From a virus, in the IMG/VR virus record IMGVR_UViG_3300001041_000017, positions 16,058-80,057 of that record: DNA of 64,000 bases, one strand, 5' to 3'. The translations under genes and the position numbers were made by a program. Below are positions 32,989 through 49,612 of this stretch, one piece after another. The notes beneath the pieces were generated by a model. That model was given only the letters and a program-made list of their open reading frames with translations, was not told the DNA's origin and did not search any database. Position 1 is the first letter of the stretch. Each line of letters starts with the position of its first letter.

Positions 32989-33081
32989 ATTTGTAAAAGT
33001 ATTTAGATATAATAATAGTTAGGAATATTTAAAATGTTCTACGTGGAACAATTACTTTGTTATAGAAGATAATTTGAGGAA

Positions 33082-36954: not shown

Positions 36955-38272
36955 AGTAATAAACCATAATGTTAGGAATGAACAAATAGTTCTTTCTAGT
37001 ATGATTCAATCACCAAAACATAGAAGAAAGTTTACAAAACTTCTTCAAGAAAGAAATTTCATAGGTAAAAAACACAAGACAATATTCACGGCTCTAAAAA
37101 TAATCGGAGAAAGAAATATGAAATTTGACGAAGATACTCTAGATCAGATTATTGGAGATGAAGAATATGGTGGATATAAATACATCCGAAAACTGAAAGA
37201 TTTATTTGGAAAAAACGATAACATAGAATTTCACATCAAAAAACTATTAGAGGATTCCGTTAGAATTAATTTATTAGAAAAACGAGGAACGAAATTTTAT
37301 GAAATGTTGGAAGATCCCAGAACCGAAATTGAGGACCTTCTAAAAATAACATCAAAAATAAATCAAGAATTAAGAAGCGGAAGAACTCTAAACAAAACTA
37401 AATCAGGAAAACAATTAAACGAAATCTATATGAGAGATTTTACGGAAAGAAGAAAGAAGAGTATTTTCGTCCCAACACATTTAGGAGATGATTTTGATTC
37501 TGGACTAACTGAAGGGTTAGCAAGAAAAAGAGTTTCAATCTGGGCTGGCCGTCCTAGTATGGGTAAAACTACAGTCGTTGCAAACGTAATAAATAGATTA
37601 ATCAATAACGGAAAGAAAGTTTTAGCTGCCCCAATTGAGGGAGGGGATGTTTCATTTCTGGATGCACTTTTAGCAATGAGAACCGAGATTACTTTAGATG
37701 AGTTAATAAAATTCCCTCACGTTATGAAAAAGAAAAGAGTATGTAGAGTTAAGAGAACCATGATTGAAATTACAAATAACAAAAACTTAGTTCTGTTAGA
37801 TGATCCAGATACAACTCTGGATGAGATAGGAGTAATTTTGGAAGAAGGAAATTTTGATGCTTGTTTCATAGATCGTTTTGAAAATCTGAGAGATATAAAC
37901 TCAGACAGAGAAACGCTAGATAGAAAGTTGAAACAAGTTCAAAATATGAGTAAGGCTATAGACGTACATATTGGCTTATTAAGCCAGATAAAAAGACTTG
38001 GGGATAGTTTTACAAAAAAAGATAAAAGACCGACTCTGGAACAGCTAAAGAACGCTGGAGCATATGAAGAGATAGCGGATCTTATATTTCTAATCTACCG
38101 TCATAAATATTATAACCCCTGGGTAGAAGAGGATATAGTTGAGATTAACGCTGCCAAACAAAGAAGAGGGAAACAGAACCATATTGGGTACATAGAATTT
38201 CATGGGAACATATCAAAGCTAGGTGAGGAAAGAGAACCGGAAAACGAAAATACTGAGAATGAAGTTTTCTAA
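36929..38272 (+). CDS. dnaB: Replicative DNA helicase DnaB-like (start probably GTG 36944)
   Basis: AGRPSMGKT, LSQI.R, RPTL..LK.AG..E..AD and AKQRRG motifs. Confidence 0.9.
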   Translation: MEIVNVGSKVINHNVRNEQIVLSSMIQSPKHRRKFTKLLQERNFIGKKHKTIFTALKIIGERNMKFDEDTLDQIIGDEEYGGYKYIRKLKDLFGKNDNIEFHIKKLLEDSVRINLLEKRGTKFYEMLEDPRTEIEDLLKITSKINQELRSGRTLNKTKSGKQLNEIYMRDFTERRKKSIFVPTHLGDDFDSGLTEGLARKRVSIWAGRPSMGKTTVVANVINRLINNGKKVLAAPIEGGDVSFLDALLAMRTEITLDELIKFPHVMKKKRVCRVKRTMIEITNNKNLVLLDDPDTTLDEIGVILEEGNFDACFIDRFENLRDINSDRETLDRKLKQVQNMSKAIDVHIGLLSQIKRLGDSFTKKDKRPTLEQLKNAGAYEEIADLIFLIYRHKYYNPWVEEDIVEINAAKQRRGKQNHIGYIEFHGNISKLGEEREPENENTENEVF

Positions 38273-38282
38273 AATATCTTTA

Positions 38283-38311
38283 TTGACAAGGTATTTTGTA
38301 TGATTTATAAT
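38283..38311 (+). promoter_or_regulatory. Consensus sigma-A promoter
   Basis: TTGACA-N17-TATAAT. Confidence 0.85.
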
Positions 38312-38341
38312 GTATAAAAATCATATAGGCGGTGAAAATTT

Positions 38342-38587
38342 ATGGAAAAATCCTGCGAGGAAAAGTTGTTTCTACTTCAGGAAAAACACAATAAAGTATT
38401 AAGAAGTCTTCAGGATCTTACGGAGTGTCTGAAACTGGCTGTTAAAGAAAGGGATTATCTAATAAATCAAAGGGAAGAAATTAATAGAATGTTAGATCTT
38501 TTAGGCGTTCCGAGAGAATTGAACGGAGATCCTCTTACTATTCCTAATCGTTTAAAAGAAGTATCTCCTCTTTATAAAGAAAAGTAA
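38342..38587 (+). CDS. Coiled-coil hypothetical protein with its own promoter
   Basis: ORF flanked by a promoter and a long palindrome. Confidence 0.6.
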   Translation: MEKSCEEKLFLLQEKHNKVLRSLQDLTECLKLAVKERDYLINQREEINRMLDLLGVPRELNGDPLTIPNRLKEVSPLYKEK

Positions 38588-38654
38588 AAATAATCCCGAC
38601 TGTTCATTTAAAAAAGTGTTGGGTGTGAAAAGTATTTGAAAAAGTAAAAACAAT

Positions 38655-38707
38655 TAAAAGTACGCCGTGTAGAAAAGGTTTAACCTTTTCTACACGGCGT
38701 ACTTTTA
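38655..38707. repeat. 53-bp perfect palindrome (26-bp arms, 1-nt centre)
   Basis: TAAAAGTACGCCGTGTAGAAAAGGTT T AACCTTTTCTACACGGCGTACTTTTA. Confidence 0.95.
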
Positions 38708-38780
38708 TTTTCAAAACAAGGGAAATTACCTTAACTGATTAGATATATTAAAGATAAGAGATAAAATTATTAAAGAAGGG

Positions 38781-38981
38781 GTGTTAATTTTGAAAAAGGA
38801 AAGATGGAAAAAATTAAGTAAGAAAGATCAAAGAAAGAAAAGGCTTAGTCGTTGCAATTTTATGGAGAGAGATAGTAATATCGGATATATGAAAGACTTT
38901 ATAAAATCCGGTCTAGCCAAAAGTTTAGATTTAGAAAACATAACCTATCCTATAAATTCTGCTGGAAAACTGACTTATTAA
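38781..38981 (+). CDS. Small basic hypothetical protein
   Basis: RBS; abuts the primase start. Confidence 0.5.
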   Translation: MLILKKERWKKLSKKDQRKKRLSRCNFMERDSNIGYMKDFIKSGLAKSLDLENITYPINSAGKLTY

Positions 38982-39998
38982 ATGAACAGACTTAAATCTT
39001 TCAAACATAATATCAGTATCGAAAAGATACTTGATAGTCTTAATATGGAATACAAACGCCGGGGAAAAGAACTCCTGGCGTTTTGTCCTAATGAGGAACA
39101 TATAGAAACTGCCCCATCATGGTCTATAAATGCAGAACCAAACAGTAAGAGGTTCGGAATACATTATTGTTTCGGCTGCGGATACCGGGGCAGCGTTATT
39201 TCGTTAGTTAAAAAATATAGAAACTGCAACGATGTAAAAGCTGTAAAATTCATAAAAGCTATCTGCGGAATAAGCGGAACAGTAGATGAAGATTATCTAC
39301 TGGAACAATCATTAAATGATAAATCAGACGATAAGAAAAAAATACTTTATAAGAGAATAAAAATAGCTTTGCCGGATGAATTTAAAAAACTAACTTCTAA
39401 GAGTGAAAAATATTTTACATATGCAACACAGAGAGGATTGACAGAAGAATCAATTAAAAAATTTAAAGTAGGATTTTGTCATACGGGATATTATTGGAAC
39501 CGTTTAATAATGCCAATATATTTCCAAGGTAATCTTTATTCATTTTTAGCAAGGAATAATGATCACAGAAGAAGATGTAAAAAAGACAAAAGAGTATTGT
39601 ATGTTCCAGGTCCCAAAATGAGCTTTATAGTTTGGCCTTATGACGATCTAGATTTTGATTTAGATTATGTGATTATCGTTGAAGGTCTATTTGATGCTAT
39701 TAAAATATTATCCTGGGATTATGAAAATGTCATAACTGTTTTCGGCAACAAAATCTCAGAAGAACAAGAGGAATTAATAAGACCATTCAAAAATATCTAT
39801 CTGGTCCCGGATGGGGATGAAGGTGGAGAAATACTAAAAGATTACTCCAAAGGATTAGTTTACGATCATAATGTATTTGTTATAGAACTTCCGGAAAATC
39901 AAGATCCGGGATCAATCTCAGAAGATGTTTTTGAAAAATGTTTTAATAACAAGAAAAATTTATTTAGCCAGAAGGTTAGAGTTAAAATAAAATATTAG
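38982..39998 (+). CDS. dnaG: DNA primase (CHC2 zinc finger + TOPRIM)
   Basis: CP...H.ETAPS, CFGCG, IVEG.FD, D.D.GG and DP motifs. Confidence 0.9.
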   Translation: MNRLKSFKHNISIEKILDSLNMEYKRRGKELLAFCPNEEHIETAPSWSINAEPNSKRFGIHYCFGCGYRGSVISLVKKYRNCNDVKAVKFIKAICGISGTVDEDYLLEQSLNDKSDDKKKILYKRIKIALPDEFKKLTSKSEKYFTYATQRGLTEESIKKFKVGFCHTGYYWNRLIMPIYFQGNLYSFLARNNDHRRRCKKDKRVLYVPGPKMSFIVWPYDDLDFDLDYVIIVEGLFDAIKILSWDYENVITVFGNKISEEQEELIRPFKNIYLVPDGDEGGEILKDYSKGLVYDHNVFVIELPENQDPGSISEDVFEKCFNNKKNLFSQKVRVKIKY

Positions 39999-40010
39999 GA
40001 TTGGTGAAAT

Positions 40011-40112
40011 ATGAATAGAGAAGATATTCTTAGAATATTTTATAGAGAGTTAATTAAACGAACAAAAAATTCTTCAGCCAAGAAGATTAAGAAAAAGAGA
40101 GTTAAGTTTTAA
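40011..40112 (+). CDS. 33-aa basic peptide (not in the ORF track)
   Basis: GGTGA RBS then MNREDILRIFYRELIKRTKNSSAKKIKKKRVKF; terminator hairpin at 40096-40133. Confidence 0.5.
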   Translation: MNREDILRIFYRELIKRTKNSSAKKIKKKRVKF

Positions 40113-40155
40113 ATAACTTGACTCTCTTTTTTTATTGTGATAATATCAAAATATC

Positions 40156-41775
40156 TTGATATTATTTACATTAGGGGGAATTTATTTGAAAGAAAATCAT
40201 ATACCTCCTCATTTGAGAATGGCAAATTATAAAGAGCAAAAAAGAAATTCTGACAAAGAATCAGACAAGAGTTTAATTAAGCTTCAGGGATATGTCAGGA
40301 TTTCTACAAAAAAAGAAGCTCAAAAAACATCTCTAGAATTTCAGGAAAAGCTATTAAAAGAATGGTGTGAAGTTCATGGATATCAATATGCTGGAACGGT
40401 TTTTGATATAAAATCTGGGGCATATATGAATTCAAGGACCGGTATTCAAGATCTTTTAGAGATGGCTAAGAATGAAGAAATTCACGGATTAATAACCAAG
40501 GAGGTTTCAAGAACCTCCAGAGATATTCAAGACATAATTCAGTTAAAAAGAAAACTCTCTGATTATGGAGCCTTCTTAATTTCAATAAAGGAGGGTTACG
40601 ACAGTAGATCGGATAACGATGAATTTTTGTTAACTATTTATGCAGCAATAGCCCAGAAAGAAAGAACCACTATTGGGAGTAGGTTGAAGACTACGCAACT
40701 AATAAAGGCCAGGAATGGTAGACCGAATAATAGGCCAGCTTTCGGATACCGAATATCAGAAGATAAAACCAGATATGAACCCTGCCCAATACATACTCCA
40801 ATCTATAAAGAGATAGTAGATATGTTTCTGTCTGGGAAGGGTAAGAATGCTATTTGTAGAGAGTTGAATGGAAGAGGGTTAAAAACATACCTTGGATCTA
40901 AATTCTCCTCTCTAACGATAGATACAATCCTTAGAAACCCGGTCTACATCGGAACGTATATGTATAACACTTCATATTGTTTCCGTGATGCAGAGGGTAA
41001 AAAACAGAGGGTTATTAGACCTCAGAACGAATGGATAGTCAGAGAAAATAATCACGAATCCTTAATAGAAAACTTAACCTGGGAATCTATACAAGAGTCA
41101 TTGGATAAGCGTAAAATAGATAAGAAATATACTGTTGATAAAAAATATTTACTAACCGGTAATTTAATTTGTTCAAGATGCGGATCTAAAATTTATGGAA
41201 AGATTCATTCTAGAACTAGGAAAGATGGATCGCGTCCTGTTTATTATTTATGTTATAATGAGTTCGGAAACTGTCATTTACCGTATACCAGAAAAGAAAT
41301 AATTGAGGATATGGTAAAAGAACATTTAACAAAAATAATTTACGATCCGGAAATTCTGAGAGATGAAATAAATAATCAGAAAAATATTATGGACGTAAAT
41401 AATTCAGATCTTGTCCAAAGAAGAGAAATTATTCAGAAGGAATTATCCGATATCGAAAAAGCTATGAATAAACAATTTGTGGCCTACGAAAAGGATATAA
41501 TTGATGTAGATACTTATGGTAAAAGAATTAAAGAATTAAAACAAAACAAACTAATTTTAGAGGAAGAATTATCTGTCCTGGAGAAGAAGTTAAGGAAAAC
41601 TGATCGGATGGATAATAAGACAGAAATACTTTTCAGAGAAATAAAACAACTGTTGGATTTAGAAAAAAATCCTGATGTTGCTGAATTAGCCCTAGGTTTA
41701 TTTGTAGATAAGATATATGTAGACTATAAGAAAGACAAATTAATTTTGAAGTATAAATATACTTTTCAAGAGTGA
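40156..41775 (+). CDS. Large serine recombinase (integrase); start probably TTG 40186
   Basis: YVRIST catalytic motif, SR.SR, recombinase domain, Zn ribbon (CSRCG...YYLC...C) and coiled coil. Confidence 0.95.
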   Translation: MILFTLGGIYLKENHIPPHLRMANYKEQKRNSDKESDKSLIKLQGYVRISTKKEAQKTSLEFQEKLLKEWCEVHGYQYAGTVFDIKSGAYMNSRTGIQDLLEMAKNEEIHGLITKEVSRTSRDIQDIIQLKRKLSDYGAFLISIKEGYDSRSDNDEFLLTIYAAIAQKERTTIGSRLKTTQLIKARNGRPNNRPAFGYRISEDKTRYEPCPIHTPIYKEIVDMFLSGKGKNAICRELNGRGLKTYLGSKFSSLTIDTILRNPVYIGTYMYNTSYCFRDAEGKKQRVIRPQNEWIVRENNHESLIENLTWESIQESLDKRKIDKKYTVDKKYLLTGNLICSRCGSKIYGKIHSRTRKDGSRPVYYLCYNEFGNCHLPYTRKEIIEDMVKEHLTKIIYDPEILRDEINNQKNIMDVNNSDLVQRREIIQKELSDIEKAMNKQFVAYEKDIIDVDTYGKRIKELKQNKLILEEELSVLEKKLRKTDRMDNKTEILFREIKQLLDLEKNPDVAELALGLFVDKIYVDYKKDKLILKYKYTFQE

Positions 41776-41782
41776 AATATAC

Positions 41783-41830
41783 TGTCCTAAATTGTAAGGG
41801 CGGGCAAAAGTACCTTTACAATTTAGGACA
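41783..41830. other. Putative attP site
   Basis: 15-bp perfect inverted arms (TGTCCTAAATTGTAA / TTACAATTTAGGACA) around an 18-bp core, 7 bp after the integrase stop. Confidence 0.7.
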
Positions 41831-41839
41831 ACAAAAACC

Positions 41840-42259
41840 CTAACAATGATTAATGTTAGGGTTTAATTTTTCCTGTAATTCTATTATGCTGTTGATGATT
41901 TTTTCGAGAGTGGAGACAGGGATTTTTTTATCATATGCTTTTTCGATTAAGAGAATATACGGAAGGAAATCCGTATGAGAAAGTATGTCTGGACTTAATT
42001 TATTATTGAGAATTCCTGATTCGTAAACATCATTTAAAGTAAAGTCGAACAAAAAATAAAACGGAGACACATTAAGTATTTCACTAAGAGTTGATATTAA
42101 TTCTTTAGAAATATTTTTACCTCTTTTATCTTTAGAAAGAACACTAATATAAGCTGCGGTCACATTTACCTTTTCTGCTAACTCCTTTTGTTTCAAACTC
42201 CTATTCTCCATAATTAATTTTAACTTTTCCCCAAATGTCAGAACATCAAATCTCTTCAT
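41840..42259 (-). CDS. XRE-family HTH repressor
   Basis: GEKLK...R.L.QKELAEKVNVT.AYIS HTH; GGAGGTG RBS; the only well-supported minus-strand gene. Confidence 0.9.
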   Translation of the reverse strand: MKRFDVLTFGEKLKLIMENRSLKQKELAEKVNVTAAYISVLSKDKRGKNISKELISTLSEILNVSPFYFLFDFTLNDVYESGILNNKLSPDILSHTDFLPYILLIEKAYDKKIPVSTLEKIINSIIELQEKLNPNINHC

Positions 42260-42348
42260 ATTATCACCTCCAAATTAAATGAATTATAGGCTATAAAACT
42301 TAAATTTGATTTATTGTTGTTATTGTACCCTAATATCAAAACAATTTC

Positions 42349-42364
42349 TGTGACCGTCGTCACA
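42349..42364. promoter_or_regulatory. CRP/FNR-type palindrome
   Basis: TGTGA-CCGTCG-TCACA. Confidence 0.55.
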
Positions 42365-42439
42365 TTTTTATATATTTTTTTAACTTTTTAATTATATAAC
42401 AAAAAGTTTATTCAAACAACAAAAATTCTCTTGTCTTTT

Positions 42440-42446
42440 TTCGACA
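42440..42446 (-). promoter_or_regulatory. Spo0A box
   Basis: TGTCGAA on the minus strand, in context TTTGTCGAAAAA. Confidence 0.5.
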
Positions 42447-42462
42447 AATTAACTGAATGTTG

Positions 42463-42491
42463 TTGACATTAAGGTTATTATGAAATATAAT
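42463..42491 (+). promoter_or_regulatory. Consensus sigma-A promoter for the sigma-like gene
   Basis: TTGACA-N17-TATAAT. Confidence 0.85.
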
Positions 42492-42600
42492 TCATGGAAA
42501 TAACATAAAGTTAATTGATCGGCATATCATAATATAAACCCTACATAAATAATAACGGTTAGTTAACAAAACCTTTATATTTAGAGAGGAGAGATATTTT

Positions 42601-43494
42601 GTGAAGAAGGGTCAATGCCAACAATGCCAAATATGTAGTTATTCCTGTGAGGACAAGGATTTACTTCTGAAACATCTAGAAGAATACCACGGATTAAGAG
42701 TAGGTTTTGTTTTAGAGAATGAGACAGGTGTTTTAGAGAACGAAATGTATCTAATAAGAGAAGGTCTCAGTAGTTCTATAGAGAAAGTTATAAGAAAGAT
42801 GAGACCTTACTTAATTAAGGCTGTAAACCAGAAGTATTCTAATTATCCCTCGAATCTTATGAATAAAGATGATTTTATCTCTATTGCAGAGATTTCTATT
42901 TGGGAGAGCTTGAATTGTCAGATAGAAAATCCAGAAATAAAGGATAAATGTTATAAATATATTTGTCCGGTATGTGGTAAAGCGTTTACTAGCATGATTA
43001 GATACGAAAAACATTTGCTGGTTAAGCATGGTAAACAAATCTCCCCTAAAGTATCTATTGGAGAATTTGTTAACTTCAGATTAGGGGTACGACTCCAAAA
43101 TGCCGTTAGAGATGAATACGCTCAAAAACGGCAAGGGAATCATTTTTATAGTCGGGACGATGAAATGTCCCAATCATTATATTTAGACTATGCTTCTGAG
43201 AGAGACGAAGATTCTGATTTTAAGGAACTTGACTCTGGTATAAACATAGAGGACGAAGTTTCTGAAAAGTTTTTGATTGAGGGAATAATCAAGAGACTTG
43301 GATCTTCTAATATAGATAAGGCAATTATAATTCAGCTATTTCGTGGTATAAAAGTAAGAAAAATTGCCACTAAAATATATAACGCTTATGGAGAGCATTC
43401 GTCTATTAAATCAGCTACTACAACCGTCAAAAATATGATAAAAGTTCTACTGGAGAACGGAAATGTATTTGAAGACGGTTTAAAAATATCATAA
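42601..43494 (+). CDS. Sigma-70-family (SigH-like) factor with two C2H2 zinc fingers
   Basis: Region-2-like 'DDFISIAEISIWESL...FVNFRL..RLQNAVR....QKR', region-4-like 'G..VRKIA' HTH and two C-x2-C-x12-H-x4-H motifs. Confidence 0.65.
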   Translation: MKKGQCQQCQICSYSCEDKDLLLKHLEEYHGLRVGFVLENETGVLENEMYLIREGLSSSIEKVIRKMRPYLIKAVNQKYSNYPSNLMNKDDFISIAEISIWESLNCQIENPEIKDKCYKYICPVCGKAFTSMIRYEKHLLVKHGKQISPKVSIGEFVNFRLGVRLQNAVRDEYAQKRQGNHFYSRDDEMSQSLYLDYASERDEDSDFKELDSGINIEDEVSEKFLIEGIIKRLGSSNIDKAIIIQLFRGIKVRKIATKIYNAYGEHSSIKSATTTVKNMIKVLLENGNVFEDGLKIS

Positions 43495-43499
43495 ATAAT

Positions 43500-43543
43500 T
43501 TAAGAAGAAACCTTTTACAATAAGAGGTTTCTTCTTAATTTTT
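43500..43543 (+). terminator. Terminator-like hairpin
   Basis: TTAAGAAGAAACC / GGTTTCTTCTTAA stem. Confidence 0.65.
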
Positions 43544-43649
43544 GATAAAATTATAAAAATTTTTCTACTAATCGTAAAAATAAAAAAGCAATTGATATAT
43601 TAAAGATAGAGGGTAATTAAACACAAAATACAAAAGGTAAAGGGAGGAA

Positions 43650-44486
43650 TTGTTTTTGGCTAAGAAAACAACTGAAAAAAAGGACGATAAGAAAACTTCC
43701 AAGACTAAATCCAAATTTAAACTGAAGGATTTACTAGCCGGGGCTGAAGCTCTTGAGCTTGATACAGATGATATCGAGGATGATGCAAAGGCTTTAGAAG
43801 CAGCCATTGATGATGCTGTTTCAGATTTAGACGAGGATGATACCTGTGAGTGTGGTGAGTGCGGTAAAGACATTCCTGACGTAGACACTTGCCCCTACTG
43901 CGGTAAAGTCTTCGAAACAGACGACTCCGATGAAGACGAAGAATCGGATGAAGATAACGACGAAGAAGAGGAAGAAGAACCTGCCACTATTAAGACTGTG
44001 GGCAAAGGCAAGAATAAAACCTTTAGCTGCTCTAAGTGCGGTAAGGCTGTAAAAGAGGATTCCAAGTCTTGCCCTAATAAGAAGTGTAAAGCTGTTTTTG
44101 AGACCGAAGAAGAGGATGAGGACGAGGAAGAAGAAACGTCCAAAAAGTCCTCTAAGAAGGATGATAAAAAAGCTGGCAAGGCTTCCGATAAAAAATCGGG
44201 CAAGGGTAAGAAAGATCCCGATCCGGAAGAAGAGGAAGATGAGGACGACGAAGAGGATGAAGAAGAAGTCGTCTATATAACTACTTCCGGTAAGGGTAAG
44301 AAGAAGAAATTTATCTGCTCAGGCTGCGGTGAAGAAGTAAAAGAAACCGCTAAAAAGTGCAAGGGTTGTAAGGCCGTATTTGGCGAAGAACCCGAAGAAG
44401 AGGAAGACGAGGAAGAAGAAACTCCTCCTCCGAAGAAGTCTTCCAAGAAGGACGATAAGAAGTCGTCCAAAAAGGGTAAGAAGTAA
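43650..44486 (+). CDS. Triple zinc-ribbon protein with D/E-rich and K-rich low-complexity tracts
   Basis: Three CxxCG...CxxC..VF units; followed by a terminator at 44532-44563. Confidence 0.75.
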   Translation: MFLAKKTTEKKDDKKTSKTKSKFKLKDLLAGAEALELDTDDIEDDAKALEAAIDDAVSDLDEDDTCECGECGKDIPDVDTCPYCGKVFETDDSDEDEESDEDNDEEEEEEPATIKTVGKGKNKTFSCSKCGKAVKEDSKSCPNKKCKAVFETEEEDEDEEEETSKKSSKKDDKKAGKASDKKSGKGKKDPDPEEEEDEDDEEDEEEVVYITTSGKGKKKKFICSGCGEEVKETAKKCKGCKAVFGEEPEEEEDEEEETPPPKKSSKKDDKKSSKKGKK

Positions 44487-44634
44487 ACTTTTAATAACCT
44501 GTCCCGGCACTTCCATCTGTTCCGGTATAGAGAAATCGCCTTTAATATCAAGGCGATTTTTTTATTTTATTTTTCAAACAAGGGAAAAAACGAATTTATT
44601 TATATATAATATAGATAAGGAGGAAAAATTGAAA

Positions 44635-45063
44635 ATGTCTATACCGACAGGATTAATTCTAGTAAATAAAGAATGTATGCCATTTCGGAAATACGAAACA
44701 GATTCAGGCTGGGATGTTAAAGCTAATATTAAAAGAAATATTATAATCTGGCCTTTCTGTAGAAAAACAATTCCAATTGGGATAAAAATAGAACCTCCAG
44801 AATTTATTTGTTCAGAGGTTAGACCTAGAAGCGGATTATCAAAAGATGAAGGTTTGATAGCTGTGGTAGGAACCATAGATACAAACTACAGGGGAGAGAT
44901 AGGAGTTACATTATTGAACTTCTCATTCTGGCCTAAAGTAGTTAAACCTTATCAAAGGATAGCTCAAATTGTTTTCGCTAAAAGATTCAATATTGAGTTT
45001 CTTGAGAAAGTAAGATTTAAGGAAACAGACCGGGGAACAAATGGTTTCGGTTCCACTGGTTAG
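44635..45063 (+). CDS. dut: Trimeric dUTPase
   Basis: SGWD, RPRSGL, GTID.NYRGEI, RIAQ and RG.NGFGSTG motifs; RBS AGGAGG before ATG 44635. Confidence 0.95.
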   Translation: MSIPTGLILVNKECMPFRKYETDSGWDVKANIKRNIIIWPFCRKTIPIGIKIEPPEFICSEVRPRSGLSKDEGLIAVVGTIDTNYRGEIGVTLLNFSFWPKVVKPYQRIAQIVFAKRFNIEFLEKVRFKETDRGTNGFGSTG

Positions 45064-45096
45064 TTATATAAAATAAAATTAGAGGGGGATTTTATA

Positions 45097-45468
45097 ATGA
45101 ATACAGCAACAAGAGATAAGTTTTCAGCAAACTATTCGGCCAGAACACCCAAAGAGGCTATTGCCTTAATCTTAACCAAAGGAAAGGCTGTTATTAATGC
45201 CAAAAACAACCTACCTCCGACATTGGGTGCTTTGGAGGCTATGTATCTGCCGTATACTATGGATTTCGAAGACAGAACTTGGACAATCCGGTTAAAGGAT
45301 TCTATGGTAAGAATCGAACCTGACAGGGCTGTTGAAAAACCAGTGGTGAAACTGGCTGAGAAAGAAGAGGTGGAAACCACTCCTCCGGTTCCGGCGAAAG
45401 CTGAAAAGAAAGTTAAAGGTGGTCAGCAGGTAACAGCAGAAACCATTTCTGCCTTATCAGAGGAATAA
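45097..45468 (+). CDS. Hypothetical protein
   Basis: ORF with RBS. Confidence 0.6.
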   Translation: MNTATRDKFSANYSARTPKEAIALILTKGKAVINAKNNLPPTLGALEAMYLPYTMDFEDRTWTIRLKDSMVRIEPDRAVEKPVVKLAEKEEVETTPPVPAKAEKKVKGGQQVTAETISALSEE

Positions 45469-45472
45469 AATA

Positions 45473-48400
45473 TTGAGCAGTAAAACTTTTCTCTCCCTTC
45501 ATGTCCATGAAGAATATAGTCTTAGAGACGGAATGGGAACAGTAGAAAAACTGGCTGAGATAGCGAAGAGCAGGGGAAACCCTGCTCTTTGTGTTACTAA
45601 TCATGGAACTATTGGTCAGTATGCAAGACAATACTTCTCTTGCCGGGATGAGGGTATTAAACCCATTTTCGGCTGCGAAGTATACGTTAATAATTTTAGG
45701 GATGAAGTAAAAGAAATCATAGAAAAAATTAAGATACTTAAAGAAGAAAATAAGAAAATTAAGAACGATAAAGATCCGGTATCAATAAAAAATCTAAAGA
45801 AAATAGTTAAACTGGATTCAAGACTAGAAAAGATAAAACCAAACAATCACTTAATTTTATTAGCAAAAAATAAAACTGGTTTAGACAATCTAATAAAGAT
45901 AACGAATGATGGTTGGAAGAACGGATTCTATAGTAGGCCAAGGGTCACTATGGATTTTGTAATGGAAAACAAAGAAGGTTTAATAATTTCTACAGCTTGC
46001 ATTGCTGGAGAGATTCCTCAAACCTTAATTAAAGAAGGTTATGAAGAAGCAAAAGAATTACTTTTAGAATGGAAAAAAGTATTCGGTAAAAGTAATCTAT
46101 TTGTTGAAATAACTATGATAGATTTTAAGCAGCAAGTAAAAATTACAAAAGAATTAATTAGACTAGCAAAAGAATGTAAGTTGAAATGGATTGTAACAAC
46201 AGACAGTCATTACATAGAACCAGAGGACTCAGAAACTCACGATATACTTCTTATGATTAATTCTGGTAAGACGGTAAATGATCTTCAAAAGAATCCAGAA
46301 GAAGTATGGCAATTTGAAAGTAAAGATCTCTGGTATAAGGATTACAAAGGAATGTATCGAACCTGGAAAAAACATTATAGAAAAGTTATGTCTAAGGAAG
46401 ACTTTCATTCAGCTATAGATAACGTAATGGACATTGTAGAAAGAATTGAAGAGTTTGATTTAGATACTTCGGTAAAACTTCCTATGATTTATGAAACTCC
46501 AGAGGAAGGGTTTAGAGAATTAAAAAGATTATGTAAAAAGGGTTGGAAAAGAAGAGAAATAGAGAATGAGGATAATATTCCTGATTACATAGAAAGAAGA
46601 GATTTTGAACTTGGTGTTATTGAGCAAATGGAGTATGCTGATTTCTTTTTAATTATGGAAGATATGTTAAGTTGGGCAAGAATGGAAAAAATACCTGTAG
46701 GTCCCAGCCGAGGATCAGCAGCAGGATCATTAGTTTCATATCTTCTTGGTATTACTGATATTGATCCCCTTAAACATAATCTACTTTTTGAAAGATTTAT
46801 TAACATAGATAGAAAAGACGTTCCAGATATAGACGTAGATTTCAGTCCAGAAAGAAGAGGAGAAGTAAGAAATTACTTAAGAGAAAAATATGGTCACGAA
46901 TATACGATGTTTATAGGATCCTACGGAACCTTTGGAACTAAGGCCGTAATAGGTGATGTTTCAAGAGTGTTATGTATTCCGCTAGGTGAAGTATTTAGAG
47001 TAACTACAAAAATGGCCGGAGGGGTAGACGAAGATCATACTTCATGGGAAGACTTAAGAAAATTCTACCCAGACCTTGATAATTTCTTTGACAAATATCC
47101 AGAAGCATTTAATTTATGTGAAAGGTTGAGAGGACAAATTAAAAACCTTTCAAAACATGCTGCTGGAGTAGTAATTTGTAGCCAGAATGTTTATAACTCA
47201 ATGCCCATCCATACGATAGACGGAGTAGAAGTTACAGCTTTACAGATTGGCCTAAACAGAAAATATAAAGAACTTGAAGAATTAGGATTCCCAAAGTTTG
47301 ATTTATTGGGACTGAATAATTTAGATGTTATTTATGATTGTGTAAGATTAATTGAAGAAAATCATGGGAAGAAAATAGACTTATTAAAAATACCATTGAA
47401 CGATAAGAAAGCATTAAGATTGGGAAACAAGAAAGATACATTAGGTGTATTCCAATTAGAAACACATTTGATGAGACAAATTATAGATACAATCGGAATA
47501 AATACTTTTAACGATATTTCAGCTATTGTAGCTATTGCAAGACCAGGACCGTTGAACGCAAAAGTACATGAATTTTATGCTGATAGAAAATCAGGAGAAG
47601 AAAAATTCAAGATACCTGAATGTTGGGAGAATGATTTAAGATCATCTTTTGGTTTGATTATTTACCAGGAACAAGTTATGAATATGGTTCAGAGGATCGG
47701 ATTCTCTCAAGCTGAAAGTAATAAATTTAGAAAATTCGTTTCTAAGAAACCATTACCAGATGAACCACTTTATAAAGATTTCTTAGCATACAAGAAAAGA
47801 TTTATAAAAGGTGCTGTGATGTCTGGGATATCCAAAACAGAGGCTAAAAAGTATTGGCAAGACATTGAGTTCTTCAGCAAATATTCATTTAACCTGAGTC
47901 ATTCTGTGGCCTATGCTTTAATTGCTTATTGGGAATTATATTTAAAAGCTCTTTATCCGGTAGAATTCCATTGTGCATTATTAATGAATACTAAAAGAGG
48001 AGTTACCGGAAAAGGTAAAAAAGAAAGAAATAAGTTTGAGGAATACATTTCTAGTACAAGAGACAGAGATATTAAAGTATTACCGATTGACATAAATAAA
48101 ACTTCAGCAAACTTTAACATAGAAAAAGGTAATATTCGTGCTGGATACACTTTCATAAAAGATATTGGAGATAAATCTCCGGAAGAATTAGAAACAAATT
48201 ATCCATTCAAAAGCATTAATAAATTTTTCAAGTCTAAAATAAATTGGAGCGTTTTAAATAAGAGTAAAATGACGGCTCTAATAAAAGTAGGTGCTTTTGA
48301 TAGCATTTATAAGAACAGAAGAAAGCTATTAGCAATTTATGAAACCTGGCAAGAGGTTAAGAAAACTAAAACTAAGTCAAAAGAATTCATAGAAAGATAC

Positions 48401-48868
48401 GATAAAAAGACTCTCATAGAATCAATAATTTATCATTACGATAACAAAGTAAAACTAAATGATTTTACAGCATTAGAAAAGTTGATGATGGAGAAAGAAT
48501 ATTTGGGATTCTATTTTAGTGGACACCCAATTGATAAATATAAAAAAGTAATTGAGAAAAATGGAATGAGATATTGTAGGGAGTTTAGAAAGAAGCCTAA
48601 ATCTAATGATAAAGTTGTTGGCATGGTTTCGTCTATAAGAGTTATAACAACCAAGTATGGCGAAAATATGGCTTTTATGGATATTGAAGATGGGATAGAT
48701 AAAGTAAACATAGCACTCTGGCCGGAGTATTACGGTCAATACAAAAAAATATTGAAAGAGGGAAATTTGATAGTGATTAAATTGAAAAAATCAAATAGAC
48801 CTGACTCATTCGAAATAGCAGGACAAGACGGTAGAAAACAGATTATGTTACTTAGTGAGTTTAGTTAG
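45473..48868 (+). CDS. dnaE: DNA polymerase III alpha subunit
   Basis: PHP domain (LHVH.EYS..DG), RGSAAGSLV, PDIDVD, KHAAGVVI, KFDLLGL, FN.SH and a C-terminal OB fold. Confidence 0.97.
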   Translation: MSSKTFLSLHVHEEYSLRDGMGTVEKLAEIAKSRGNPALCVTNHGTIGQYARQYFSCRDEGIKPIFGCEVYVNNFRDEVKEIIEKIKILKEENKKIKNDKDPVSIKNLKKIVKLDSRLEKIKPNNHLILLAKNKTGLDNLIKITNDGWKNGFYSRPRVTMDFVMENKEGLIISTACIAGEIPQTLIKEGYEEAKELLLEWKKVFGKSNLFVEITMIDFKQQVKITKELIRLAKECKLKWIVTTDSHYIEPEDSETHDILLMINSGKTVNDLQKNPEEVWQFESKDLWYKDYKGMYRTWKKHYRKVMSKEDFHSAIDNVMDIVERIEEFDLDTSVKLPMIYETPEEGFRELKRLCKKGWKRREIENEDNIPDYIERRDFELGVIEQMEYADFFLIMEDMLSWARMEKIPVGPSRGSAAGSLVSYLLGITDIDPLKHNLLFERFINIDRKDVPDIDVDFSPERRGEVRNYLREKYGHEYTMFIGSYGTFGTKAVIGDVSRVLCIPLGEVFRVTTKMAGGVDEDHTSWEDLRKFYPDLDNFFDKYPEAFNLCERLRGQIKNLSKHAAGVVICSQNVYNSMPIHTIDGVEVTALQIGLNRKYKELEELGFPKFDLLGLNNLDVIYDCVRLIEENHGKKIDLLKIPLNDKKALRLGNKKDTLGVFQLETHLMRQIIDTIGINTFNDISAIVAIARPGPLNAKVHEFYADRKSGEEKFKIPECWENDLRSSFGLIIYQEQVMNMVQRIGFSQAESNKFRKFVSKKPLPDEPLYKDFLAYKKRFIKGAVMSGISKTEAKKYWQDIEFFSKYSFNLSHSVAYALIAYWELYLKALYPVEFHCALLMNTKRGVTGKGKKERNKFEEYISSTRDRDIKVLPIDINKTSANFNIEKGNIRAGYTFIKDIGDKSPEELETNYPFKSINKFFKSKINWSVLNKSKMTALIKVGAFDSIYKNRRKLLAIYETWQEVKKTKTKSKEFIERYDKKTLIESIIYHYDNKVKLNDFTALEKLMMEKEYLGFYFSGHPIDKYKKVIEKNGMRYCREFRKKPKSNDKVVGMVSSIRVITTKYGENMAFMDIEDGIDKVNIALWPEYYGQYKKILKEGNLIVIKLKKSNRPDSFEIAGQDGRKQIMLLSEFS

Positions 48869-48941
48869 AATGAAGAAAATAAAATTATAAACAAAGTAAA
48901 TTAAAAATTCATCTTTATATAATAAAGATAAGGGGGAAATT

Positions 48942-49454
48942 ATGCCCGACAATACAATCTATAAAATAATATCCAGAGACTTAAATCCCGATGATTTTGA
49001 AAGACAATATTCTAAGTTAAAGAAAGAACTAAGAACCGAAAAAAACATGAATTACGACGAACTGATTGATAAGATAGGTAAAGCAGCAGAGATGACAAGA
49101 CTTGCAGGTAATCTTTATGTAGCTGCAAAAGAATCCTACAAAAAGTTTGAAGAAGTAGAATTACCTATCTGGTGGGCTGAAGTATTATTATTAGCCGAAA
49201 AAGATTTAGAAAAACTCAAAGCTAAGAAAGAAATCTCTGGTCAAATAACTGAAGAAAAGATGAAGAATTGGGTTAGAAGAAAAAAACCCAAAACATATAA
49301 AAGAATGATGGACAAATTAAGAAAGTTACGGACAACCAGAGATATGTTAGAAATCCTTTATAAACAATGGGAGGGTAGAAAATCCCTCCTTCAAACTCAG
49401 GGTAACGTAATCAAGGAACGTAGAGAATTCCTTAATTCAAGAGGTAAATTATAA
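48942..49454 (+). CDS. Helical protein, possible UvsY-like recombination mediator
   Basis: Coiled-coil pattern; lies near the SSB and RecA genes. Confidence 0.4.
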   Translation: MPDNTIYKIISRDLNPDDFERQYSKLKKELRTEKNMNYDELIDKIGKAAEMTRLAGNLYVAAKESYKKFEEVELPIWWAEVLLLAEKDLEKLKAKKEISGQITEEKMKNWVRRKKPKTYKRMMDKLRKLRTTRDMLEILYKQWEGRKSLLQTQGNVIKERREFLNSRGKL

Positions 49455-49612
49455 TGGAAAAAGAAGAGACATTAACTTGTCCTGAGTGTGGTTCTACAGA
49501 TATAGACTGTGAAGAATTTAGTAGTAGTCTGGATAGCGAATGGATCTGTTTGACTTGTCGCCATTTGGACACTTTAAATAATTTTATCAAAGATCTAAGA
49601 AAATTAATATAA
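49454..49612 (+). CDS. 52-aa zinc-ribbon protein (not in the ORF track)
   Basis: GAGGT RBS; MEKEETLTCPECGSTD...WICLTCRH. Confidence 0.65.
   Translation: MEKEETLTCPECGSTDIDCEEFSSSLDSEWICLTCRHLDTLNNFIKDLRKLI

Follow-up and report, generated by a model that had tools for sequence, protein, structure and literature searches.

The DNA analysed here, called the window below, is a stretch of 64,000 nucleotides (nt) that corresponds to bases 16058-80057 of an IMG/VR virus record (IMGVR_UViG_3300001041_000017; 80 kb, judged 67% complete). The subject is a gene for a sigma factor of 297 amino acids (aa), located at 42601..43494 on the + strand. It begins with GTG, and a ribosome-binding site core (AGGAG) is read from the sequence at 42587..42591 (+), 9 nt before the start codon. 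The coordinates are exactly those given in the initial annotation of this DNA, which had proposed a sigma factor with two C2H2 zinc fingers. Profile matches and predicted structures assign the protein to the sigma-70 family; it has a sigma2 and a sigma4 domain but lacks sigma3. One of its two C2H2 motifs lies within sigma2.

The N-terminal and the internal motif both have the spacing C-x2-C-x12-H-x4-H, confirming the proposed pair. The four peptide strings quoted in support are all present: the N-terminal finger at residues 9-30, a region 2.2-like helix at 90-104, the internal finger at 120-143, and a 2.3/2.4-like segment at 152-177. The whole protein matches Pfam zf-C2H2 (PF00096) in two stretches with 30.6 bits (gathering score, 25.2). 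When scanned alone, the internal finger (42958..43029, +; ligands C122, C125, H138, and H143) scores 23.4 bits (E 7.3e-5) and the N-terminal one (42625..42690, +; C9, C12, H25, and H30) scores 17.2 bits (E 0.0072), which is below the Pfam cut-off. The regular expression C-x2-4-C-x12-H-x3-5-H has two matches in the predicted proteome of the record (25,021 aa), both in the sigma protein; shuffled proteomes contain 0.02 matches on average. When the sigma protein alone is shuffled, at least one match appears in 0.04% of trials and two never appear. In the AlphaFold model of the window protein, the internal finger has a beta-beta-alpha fold with two short strands and a helix at residues 132-143, at a predicted local distance difference test score (pLDDT) of about 90. 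The N-terminal finger is modelled at low confidence (pLDDT 41-52), is absent from the 15 relatives described below and thus found only in the window protein, and is the weaker of the two. The best PDB sequence matches of the fingers are designed consensus fingers. The term 'eukaryote-style' refers to the motif alone; nothing indicates that the finger has a eukaryotic origin.

Relatives were collected by searching 1.8 billion representative proteins exhaustively with phmmer, which gave about 10 full-length proteins of 225-261 aa. A profile search added five more, resulting in an alignment of 16 members including the window protein. All of the relatives are metagenomic. Membership in the sigma-70 family is supported alike by profiles, by TIGR02937 in the relatives, by two AlphaFold models, and by the modelled interface with beta-prime described below. 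NCBIfam TIGR02937 (sigma-70 family) matches eight of the ten relatives scanned (best E 1.4e-9). Three relatives also match SigB/F/G below the curated cut-offs, covering positions 145-204 of the SigBFG profile. Sigma70_r2 and Sigma70_r4 are found in four and two members, respectively, at an E of only about 0.01. Against PDB chains, the family profile matches SigH (3mzy, E 1.2e-5), SigF (1l0o_C, E 0.0028), and SigB (8x6g_H, E 0.0077), and the HMMER alignment to SigH continues through region 4 (3mzy residues 90-152). A weak similarity to NCBIfam NF041508 (BacL2 family; best E 5.4e-6) is seen in five members of the family, in the N-terminal 70 residues, within the part that corresponds to regions 2.1-2.2. 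A TIGR02937 search of the 80-kb record, at 67% completeness, returned nothing, the sigma gene itself included, and has little bearing on the presence of other sigma genes.

Predicted structures place the protein in the same family. The AlphaFold model of the window protein has a pLDDT of 70, with about 80-90 in sigma2, the internal finger, and sigma4. In an all-against-all structural search with this model (VIA), sigma factors make up 19 of the 20 best matches, 16 of these being to sigma2 only (Z 6.4-8.6, root-mean-square deviation (rmsd) 2.3-4.2, 72-110 residues aligned). Examples are SigI6 (8i24_F; Z 8.6, rmsd 2.9, 96 aligned), Streptomyces coelicolor ShbA (9m84_F; Z 8.5, rmsd 4.2, 102 aligned), and SigC (2o7g_B; Z 8.3, rmsd 2.6, 87 aligned). 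The sigma4 domain is matched separately over residues 220-296, by SigA region 4 (6ono_B; Z 6.1, rmsd 2.9, 64 aligned; and 4g6d_A; Z 6.0, rmsd 2.4, 57 aligned) and also by SigR region 4 and SigF. Both the sigma2 and the sigma4 fold, on which the initial annotation depended, are thus matched by AlphaFold models. The model of one relative, P0002, has a pLDDT of 79.5, and above 90 across sigma2 and the finger, which has the same beta-beta-alpha fold. All 50 Foldseek matches listed for P0002 are sigma factors (best E 2.3e-4). With the whole window-protein model, Foldseek gave no match at E <=0.001; the top ranks were nevertheless sigma factors. In BFVD, a collection of predicted viral structures, most of the matches are phage sigma factors. 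There is no sigma3-sized domain: sigma2 ends near residue 183, a linker of about 30 residues follows, and sigma4 begins near residue 216. The full-length structural neighbours of P0002 are mostly group 3 sigma factors (SigD, SigB, and sigma28), and a scan of neighbouring genes revealed no anti-sigma domain. The protein is not filed here under the extracytoplasmic function (ECF, group 4) sigma factors.

The order of regions along the protein is as follows. Regions 2.1-2.2 (residues 42-104; 42724..42912, +) contain the core-binding helix with D91 and W101, and align with residues 384-420 of sigma70 (hhalign) and 18-74 of SigF 1l0o_C. The expanded specificity loop (residues 105-152; 42913..43056, +), delimited by family alignments, consists of an 11-residue insert, the finger, and a conserved P-K-V-S return. 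The long helix of regions 2.3/2.4 (residues 153-183; 43057..43149, +; HMMER to 3mzy and hhalign) carries F156, F159, Q166-N167, and R170. It is followed by an acidic linker of low confidence (residues 184-215; 43150..43245, +; pLDDT 31-43), whose equivalent in P0002 is also disordered, and by a sigma4-like helix-turn-helix (HTH) with a lengthened turn (residues 216-290; 43246..43470, +), assigned from VIA, HMMER, and profile matches.

The initial annotation had placed the internal finger between the 2.2-like and the 2.3/2.4-like segments, and three lines of evidence agree with this position. In the HMMER alignment to SigH (3mzy), the D-D-L...W...K-Y segment of the family is the region 2.2 helix, the P-K-V-S-I..Y..Y..G.Y.Q-N.I-R segment after the finger corresponds to regions 2.3/2.4, and the finger occupies the place of five or six loop residues of SigH. 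In the hhalign comparison with Escherichia coli sigma70, regions 2.1-2.2 are aligned up to K418-F419-E420, after which the finger begins. When the finger columns were removed for one hhalign run, for alignment purposes only, the family became colinear with sigma70 from 2.1 to 2.4 at a weak E of 0.011. This run pairs I153 with F427, F156 with Y430, and F159 with W433 of sigma70, in agreement with the HMMER alignment to SigH, and places the finger inside the F419-K426 loop. The half after the finger, compared alone with sigma70 by hhalign, gave nothing useful. Because HMMER, hhalign, and the helix order of both models agree, the insertion point is assigned, from alignments and predicted structures, to the loop that joins the third and fourth helices of sigma2. 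The inserted residues, about 45 in number, are covered by no solved sigma2: 85-102 residues align over model spans of 130-150.

It is reported that the specificity loop and the helix after it recognise the -10 element and hold its flipped 'master' nucleotide in primary and ECF sigma factors, and that the loop adjoins promoter DNA in solved holoenzymes (PMC6411747, PMC12019637). Li et al. found the loop to be disordered in ECF sigma factors that have no sigma1.2 (PMC6411747). The 11-residue insert (residues 105-117, at 42913-42951 of the window) lies just before the internal finger. It is flanked by extra cysteines, C106 and C117, and is unique to the window protein.

The four zinc ligands of the internal finger are invariant in all 16 members, whose identities are 21-45%. 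P123 is nearly invariant and the aromatic residues at 120 and 135 are kept. Judged from this alignment, the finger is a conserved trait of the family and not a one-off. The sigma segments on either side are more strongly conserved (D91, W101, I153, Y156, Y159, G162, Q166, N167, R170, E172, and R177), with Y or F in 13 of the 16 members at the F156 column and in 13 of the 16 at the F159 column.

A word-indexed search with the window protein returned itself only, and the same search with family alignments returned few members. No match to the sigma protein was found by tblastn in 50,697 phage records. Scans for related loci returned none, either among viral contigs (with the window sigma, P0002, P0011, and P0017) or among genome contigs (with the window sigma). 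In a metagenome scan, two loci were returned, both from one distant phage, L003 (46% G+C). Its sigma homologue is about 22% identical and is also located between primase and DnaE polymerase genes. Intergenic DNA in L003 is too little to judge the presence of a promoter motif.

Contact with the core enzyme was modelled by co-folding residues 40-190 of the sigma protein (with the 16-row alignment) with residues 200-340 of Bacillus subtilis beta-prime, which serves as a stand-in for the host. The score is 0.74, against 0.17 for the best of three controls. The mark for this score is reached by 58 of 80 solved complexes and by 2 of 110 mismatched pairs. At least 65% of the contacts recur between runs, and the pLDDT of the partner is at least 68. 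In the modelled interface, residues 60-65 and 83-101 (regions 2.1 and 2.2) face the clamp helices of beta-prime at 256-287. The near-invariant D91 and W101 are within it, and the internal finger is outside it. Residues 110 and 113 of the 11-residue insert are also found in the modelled interface. Structures of sigma/beta-prime complexes have been solved, and the beta-prime used here comes from a stand-in host. The model therefore points to a canonical interface retained in form rather than to demonstrated binding; binding to the core is supported in silico only.

The sigma gene has its own promoter and its own terminator and is monocistronic. A perfect sigma70/sigmaA-type promoter, TTGACA-17-TATAAT, is found at 42463..42491 (+; a 12/12 match), about 110 nt upstream of the gene. 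Only two such perfect sites exist within 38000-49500, the other being at 38283-38311. A terminator-like hairpin with an 18-pair stem and a T-run follows directly after the sigma stop codon (43500..43538, +). The promoter is inside a switch region of 341 bp that is common to the sigma gene and a divergent gene for a cI/Cro-type HTH repressor of 139 aa (41840..42259, -; Pfam HTH_3, 1.6e-7). A consensus promoter beside a divergent cI-like repressor, together with the terminator, fits an early switch sigma. From its position, the promoter would be under the control of the repressor. Because the sigma gene is directly under the prophage switch, its product is probably the master activator of the lytic programme of the phage. 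Repeats containing TGTTGTT are found in the switch region at 42308-42321, 42415-42428, and 42455-42465, as one inverted pair and one copy abutting the -35 element of the sigma promoter. These repeats may be operators.

A second promoter-like motif, referred to as class II, consists of GGGAAA or GTAAA, a spacer of 17-18 nt, TATAWT, and then AWAGATAAG. Exact matches are found at 38744, 43596, 44605, and 48918. These are four sites against 0.14 expected, all on the + strand and upstream of genes, and they precede the primase gene, the gene after sigma, the dUTPase gene, and the gene after DnaE. The one upstream of the gene after sigma, TATATTAAAGATA (43596..43608, +), is a candidate target. Looser copies exist at 33008 and 62927, and at genome positions 2568 and 3968, upstream of the window. 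Every class II copy is on the + strand and upstream of a gene, and several come after a terminator. In two cases the AAGG(A/G)GG tail of the motif doubles as a ribosome-binding site, so very short leaders are implied. The class II promoters are a candidate regulon of the phage sigma, tied to it by co-occurrence only. The initial annotation had suggested that the finger adds promoter specificity, possibly for an AGATA extension; a promoter class with such an extension does exist.

The gene after sigma (43650..44486, +) encodes a zinc-ribbon protein, identified by Pfam zinc-ribbon matches, with long acidic and basic blocks. In L003, the sigma homologue is likewise followed by a gene for a zinc-ribbon protein with long acidic and then lysine-rich runs (L003:7918-9156). 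The start of the L003 gene overlaps the sigma stop codon; its counterpart in the window has its own class II promoter. The conserved adjacency of the two genes suggests a functional link, for example as a partner, a DNA mimic, or an anti-sigma factor.

The sequence and the models show both motifs, the sigma folds, where the finger is inserted, and its conservation across the family. It is very probable that the protein functions as a sigma-family factor and that its specificity loop holds a structural zinc finger. We further infer when the gene acts (early), which promoters it serves, and that the finger touches DNA, and propose the following mechanism. The phage would make its own two-domain sigma factor at an early stage, using a consensus promoter of the host-sigmaA type opposite the prophage repressor. 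The region 2.2 helix would dock this sigma on the host core RNA polymerase, as in every sigma factor, and the enzyme would be redirected to phage promoters, the likeliest being the class II promoters before genes of the replication module. The sigma2 specificity loop, which joins the 2.2 and 2.3 helices, carries a grafted beta-beta-alpha finger that is probably stabilised by zinc. Located at the upstream fork of the transcription bubble, the finger could make an extra DNA contact beside the -10 hexamer, either with the conserved (A/T)GA just upstream or with AWAGATAAG just downstream of it. The DNA within its reach would be the duplex just upstream of -12, or the non-template strand. Such a finger would stand in for sigma1.2 and sigma3.0 of larger sigma factors.

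We consider the whole of this statement (an early switch sigma that uses the host core polymerase and has a finger in its -10 reading loop for an extra DNA contact) to be evenly balanced between right and wrong. The part that says the internal finger reads DNA is held tentatively, at a level below that of the whole. A more far-reaching form is somewhat unlikely: in it, a modular C2H2 finger replaces the specificity loop and reads bases beside -10, its helix sets the promoter code of each phage, and the N-terminal finger of this phage either makes one more contact or acts as an autoinhibitory module where sigma1.1 would be.

Several observations weigh against the proposed mechanism. The window protein itself matches no sigma model in Pfam or NCBIfam, and the best relative reaches 37.8 bits with TIGR02937, below the curated cut-off of 42.9 (such a cut-off serves for detection, and the sigma models are split by the inserted finger). 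The good co-folding score may merely mirror the likeness of the protein to solved sigma/beta-prime complexes, and was obtained with a stand-in host. The class II -10 element is a perfect sigmaA-type TATAAT and TGn is present at two of the sites, so that host sigmaA could use these promoters with no help from the phage sigma. In the 16-member alignment, the base-contacting positions -1, 2, 3, and 6 of the finger helix differ between members and frequently hold acidic residues, and only 6 of the 16 members have the usual Phe at C+4. The finger does not resemble a shared DNA-reading surface, although differing specificities among the phages could also explain the variation.

A first alternative is regarded as possible and nearly on a par with DNA reading by the finger. 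Here the protein is also a working phage sigma, and the finger is either a zinc-stabilised brace that pre-organises the specificity loop, as sigma1.2 does in primary sigma factors, or a docking or sensing surface (candidates are the zinc-ribbon/acidic neighbour, a host factor, zinc, and the redox state). The pattern of conservation speaks for such a role: the ligands and the hydrophobic core (F120 and Y135) are conserved and the canonical DNA-contact positions are not. The finger and sigma2 of P0002 are modelled together at a pLDDT above 90, and a folded brace would be useful because the loop is disordered in ECF sigma factors without sigma1.2 (PMC6411747). A further point in favour is the zinc-ribbon/acidic/basic protein, whose gene follows the sigma gene in two very distant phages. 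Nothing direct speaks against this alternative; however, a domain of 30 residues beside promoter DNA is unlikely to avoid the DNA altogether, and the conserved bases on both sides of the class II -10 element need a reader.

It is improbable that the protein is derived from a sigma factor and no longer initiates transcription, being instead a decoy that shuts off host sigmaA by occupying the beta-prime clamp helices or a free-standing zinc-finger/HTH regulator. The weak sequence similarity to sigma models and the lengthened turn of the sigma4 HTH would fit such a protein, and in temperate phages the position of the gene is often held by Cro or an antirepressor. Conservation, however, peaks in regions 2.2 and 2.3/2.4, including the aromatic residues at the Y430 and W433 positions and Q-N-x-I-R, which a decoy would not need, and both sigma2 and sigma4 are kept across the family. 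It is hardly credible that Cys and His residues of an otherwise ordinary small sigma factor form the C2H2 motifs by chance: the N-terminal motif, below the Pfam cut-off when scanned alone and lacking a counterpart in relatives, could be so explained, but the internal ligands are invariant in divergent members, shuffled sequences almost never give the motif, the beta-beta-alpha fold is predicted at high confidence, and no solved sigma2 covers the inserted residues.

Among known sigma factors, the closest in layout are the ECF and minimal group 3 sigmas, such as Mycobacterium tuberculosis SigH, S. coelicolor ShbA (9m84), Fusobacterium nucleatum SigH (3mzy), B. subtilis SigH and SigD, and Staphylococcus aureus SigB (8x6g). 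ECF sigma factors have two domains, and a cognate anti-sigma factor is usually encoded alongside. The window protein shares with the ECF and group 3 factors a compact sigma2 bundle, a sigma4 HTH joined by a short flexible linker, a region 2.2 helix that is modelled on the beta-prime clamp helices, and aromatic residues at the melting positions of region 2.3. Unlike them, it has a zinc-finger module of about 30-45 residues in place of a specificity loop of 5-8 residues, family scores below the cut-offs, and a lengthened turn in the sigma4 HTH.

SPO1 gp28 is a switch sigma encoded by a Bacillus phage. SigF/SigG-like sigma factors are also found in Bacillus phages (PMC9429907). As in these systems, a phage gene transcribed by host sigmaA would retarget the host core polymerase, which here is a proposal, and the BFVD neighbours of the window protein are mostly phage sigma factors. 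No zinc finger is described in SPO1 gp28 or the SigF/SigG-like proteins. The window sigma also differs from them in belonging to a temperate phage with a serine integrase, a repressor, and a DnaE-type replication module.

The internal finger resembles C2H2 fingers of the TFIIIA/Zif268 type (PF00096) in its spacing, in the aromatic residue before the first Cys, in the aromatic residue in the helix, and in the predicted beta-beta-alpha fold. It is unlike them in that a single finger is found inside a loop of another domain, with no tandem array joined by TGEKP linkers, the Phe at C+4 is poorly kept, and the DNA-contact positions are unconserved.

Modules that add DNA contacts beside the -10 element are sigma3.0 (extended -10), sigma1.2 (discriminator), and the actinobacterial RbpA, which is bound to sigma2. 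The finger is proposed to be a similar extra element, attached to sigma2 and touching DNA beside -10. Those modules, by contrast, consist of helices or are proteins in their own right, and none is known to be a C2H2 finger or to be inserted in the specificity loop. Another lineage-specific insertion inside sigma2 is the non-conserved region of primary sigma factors, between 1.2 and 2.1. It is at another site, binds no metal, and is far from the loop that reads -10.

The initial annotation knew of no described example of such a protein, and full-text literature searches likewise turned up no paper on a sigma factor into which a C2H2 finger is inserted; the sole co-mention of C2H2 and sigma in these searches concerned anti-sigma factors. 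In the current view, sigma factors read the -10 element with one helix and a short, flexible loop. The presence of a folded domain that binds metal in this loop, throughout a family of phage sigma factors, would give the initiation machinery a new route to promoter specificity or to a rigid loop. It would also bring classical C2H2 fingers, which are seldom met outside eukaryotes, into the centre of transcription in bacteria. Provided that specificity is set by the finger, members of the family could serve synthetic biology as orthogonal, and perhaps re-targetable, sigma factors. If the finger reads bases, it would be a natural fusion of bacterial and eukaryote-type DNA recognition and a possible scaffold for programmable sigma factors.

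The phage that carries the gene is temperate and without a close cultured relative. DNA of the record is present in groundwater metagenome sequencing runs, probably those of the source samples, with no RNA run listed among them, and the same 297-aa sigma protein is also found on contigs of up to about 120 kb. In the 80-kb record, the G+C content is about 32% and 85 of the 87 called genes are on the + strand; no tRNA genes were found in the phage sequence. Terminase, portal, and head genes are upstream of the window, and a long structural block is also encoded. A replication/recombination module includes a DnaG-type primase, a dUTPase, a DnaE-type polymerase, and a RecA/UvsX-like protein. Identity of the DnaE protein to any phage record is at most 34%. 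The integrase and DnaE have distant phage relatives only, and the closest cultured ones are phages of Bacillota, Mycoplasmatota, and Streptomyces.

Within the replication module, a gene for a large serine recombinase (integrase) is located at 40156-41775. This gene and the divergent cI-type repressor gene indicate that the phage is temperate. The two are inserted between the primase gene and the sigma and DnaE genes. At the same place, the distant phage L003 carries small open reading frames (ORFs) of unassigned function and no large recombinase gene, so the lysogeny cassette may be a later acquisition in the lineage of the window phage. Upstream of the cassette, the second perfect promoter (38283-38311) precedes a small ORF at about 38342-38587, after which a bidirectional terminator with a 20-bp stem is found at 38659-38703.

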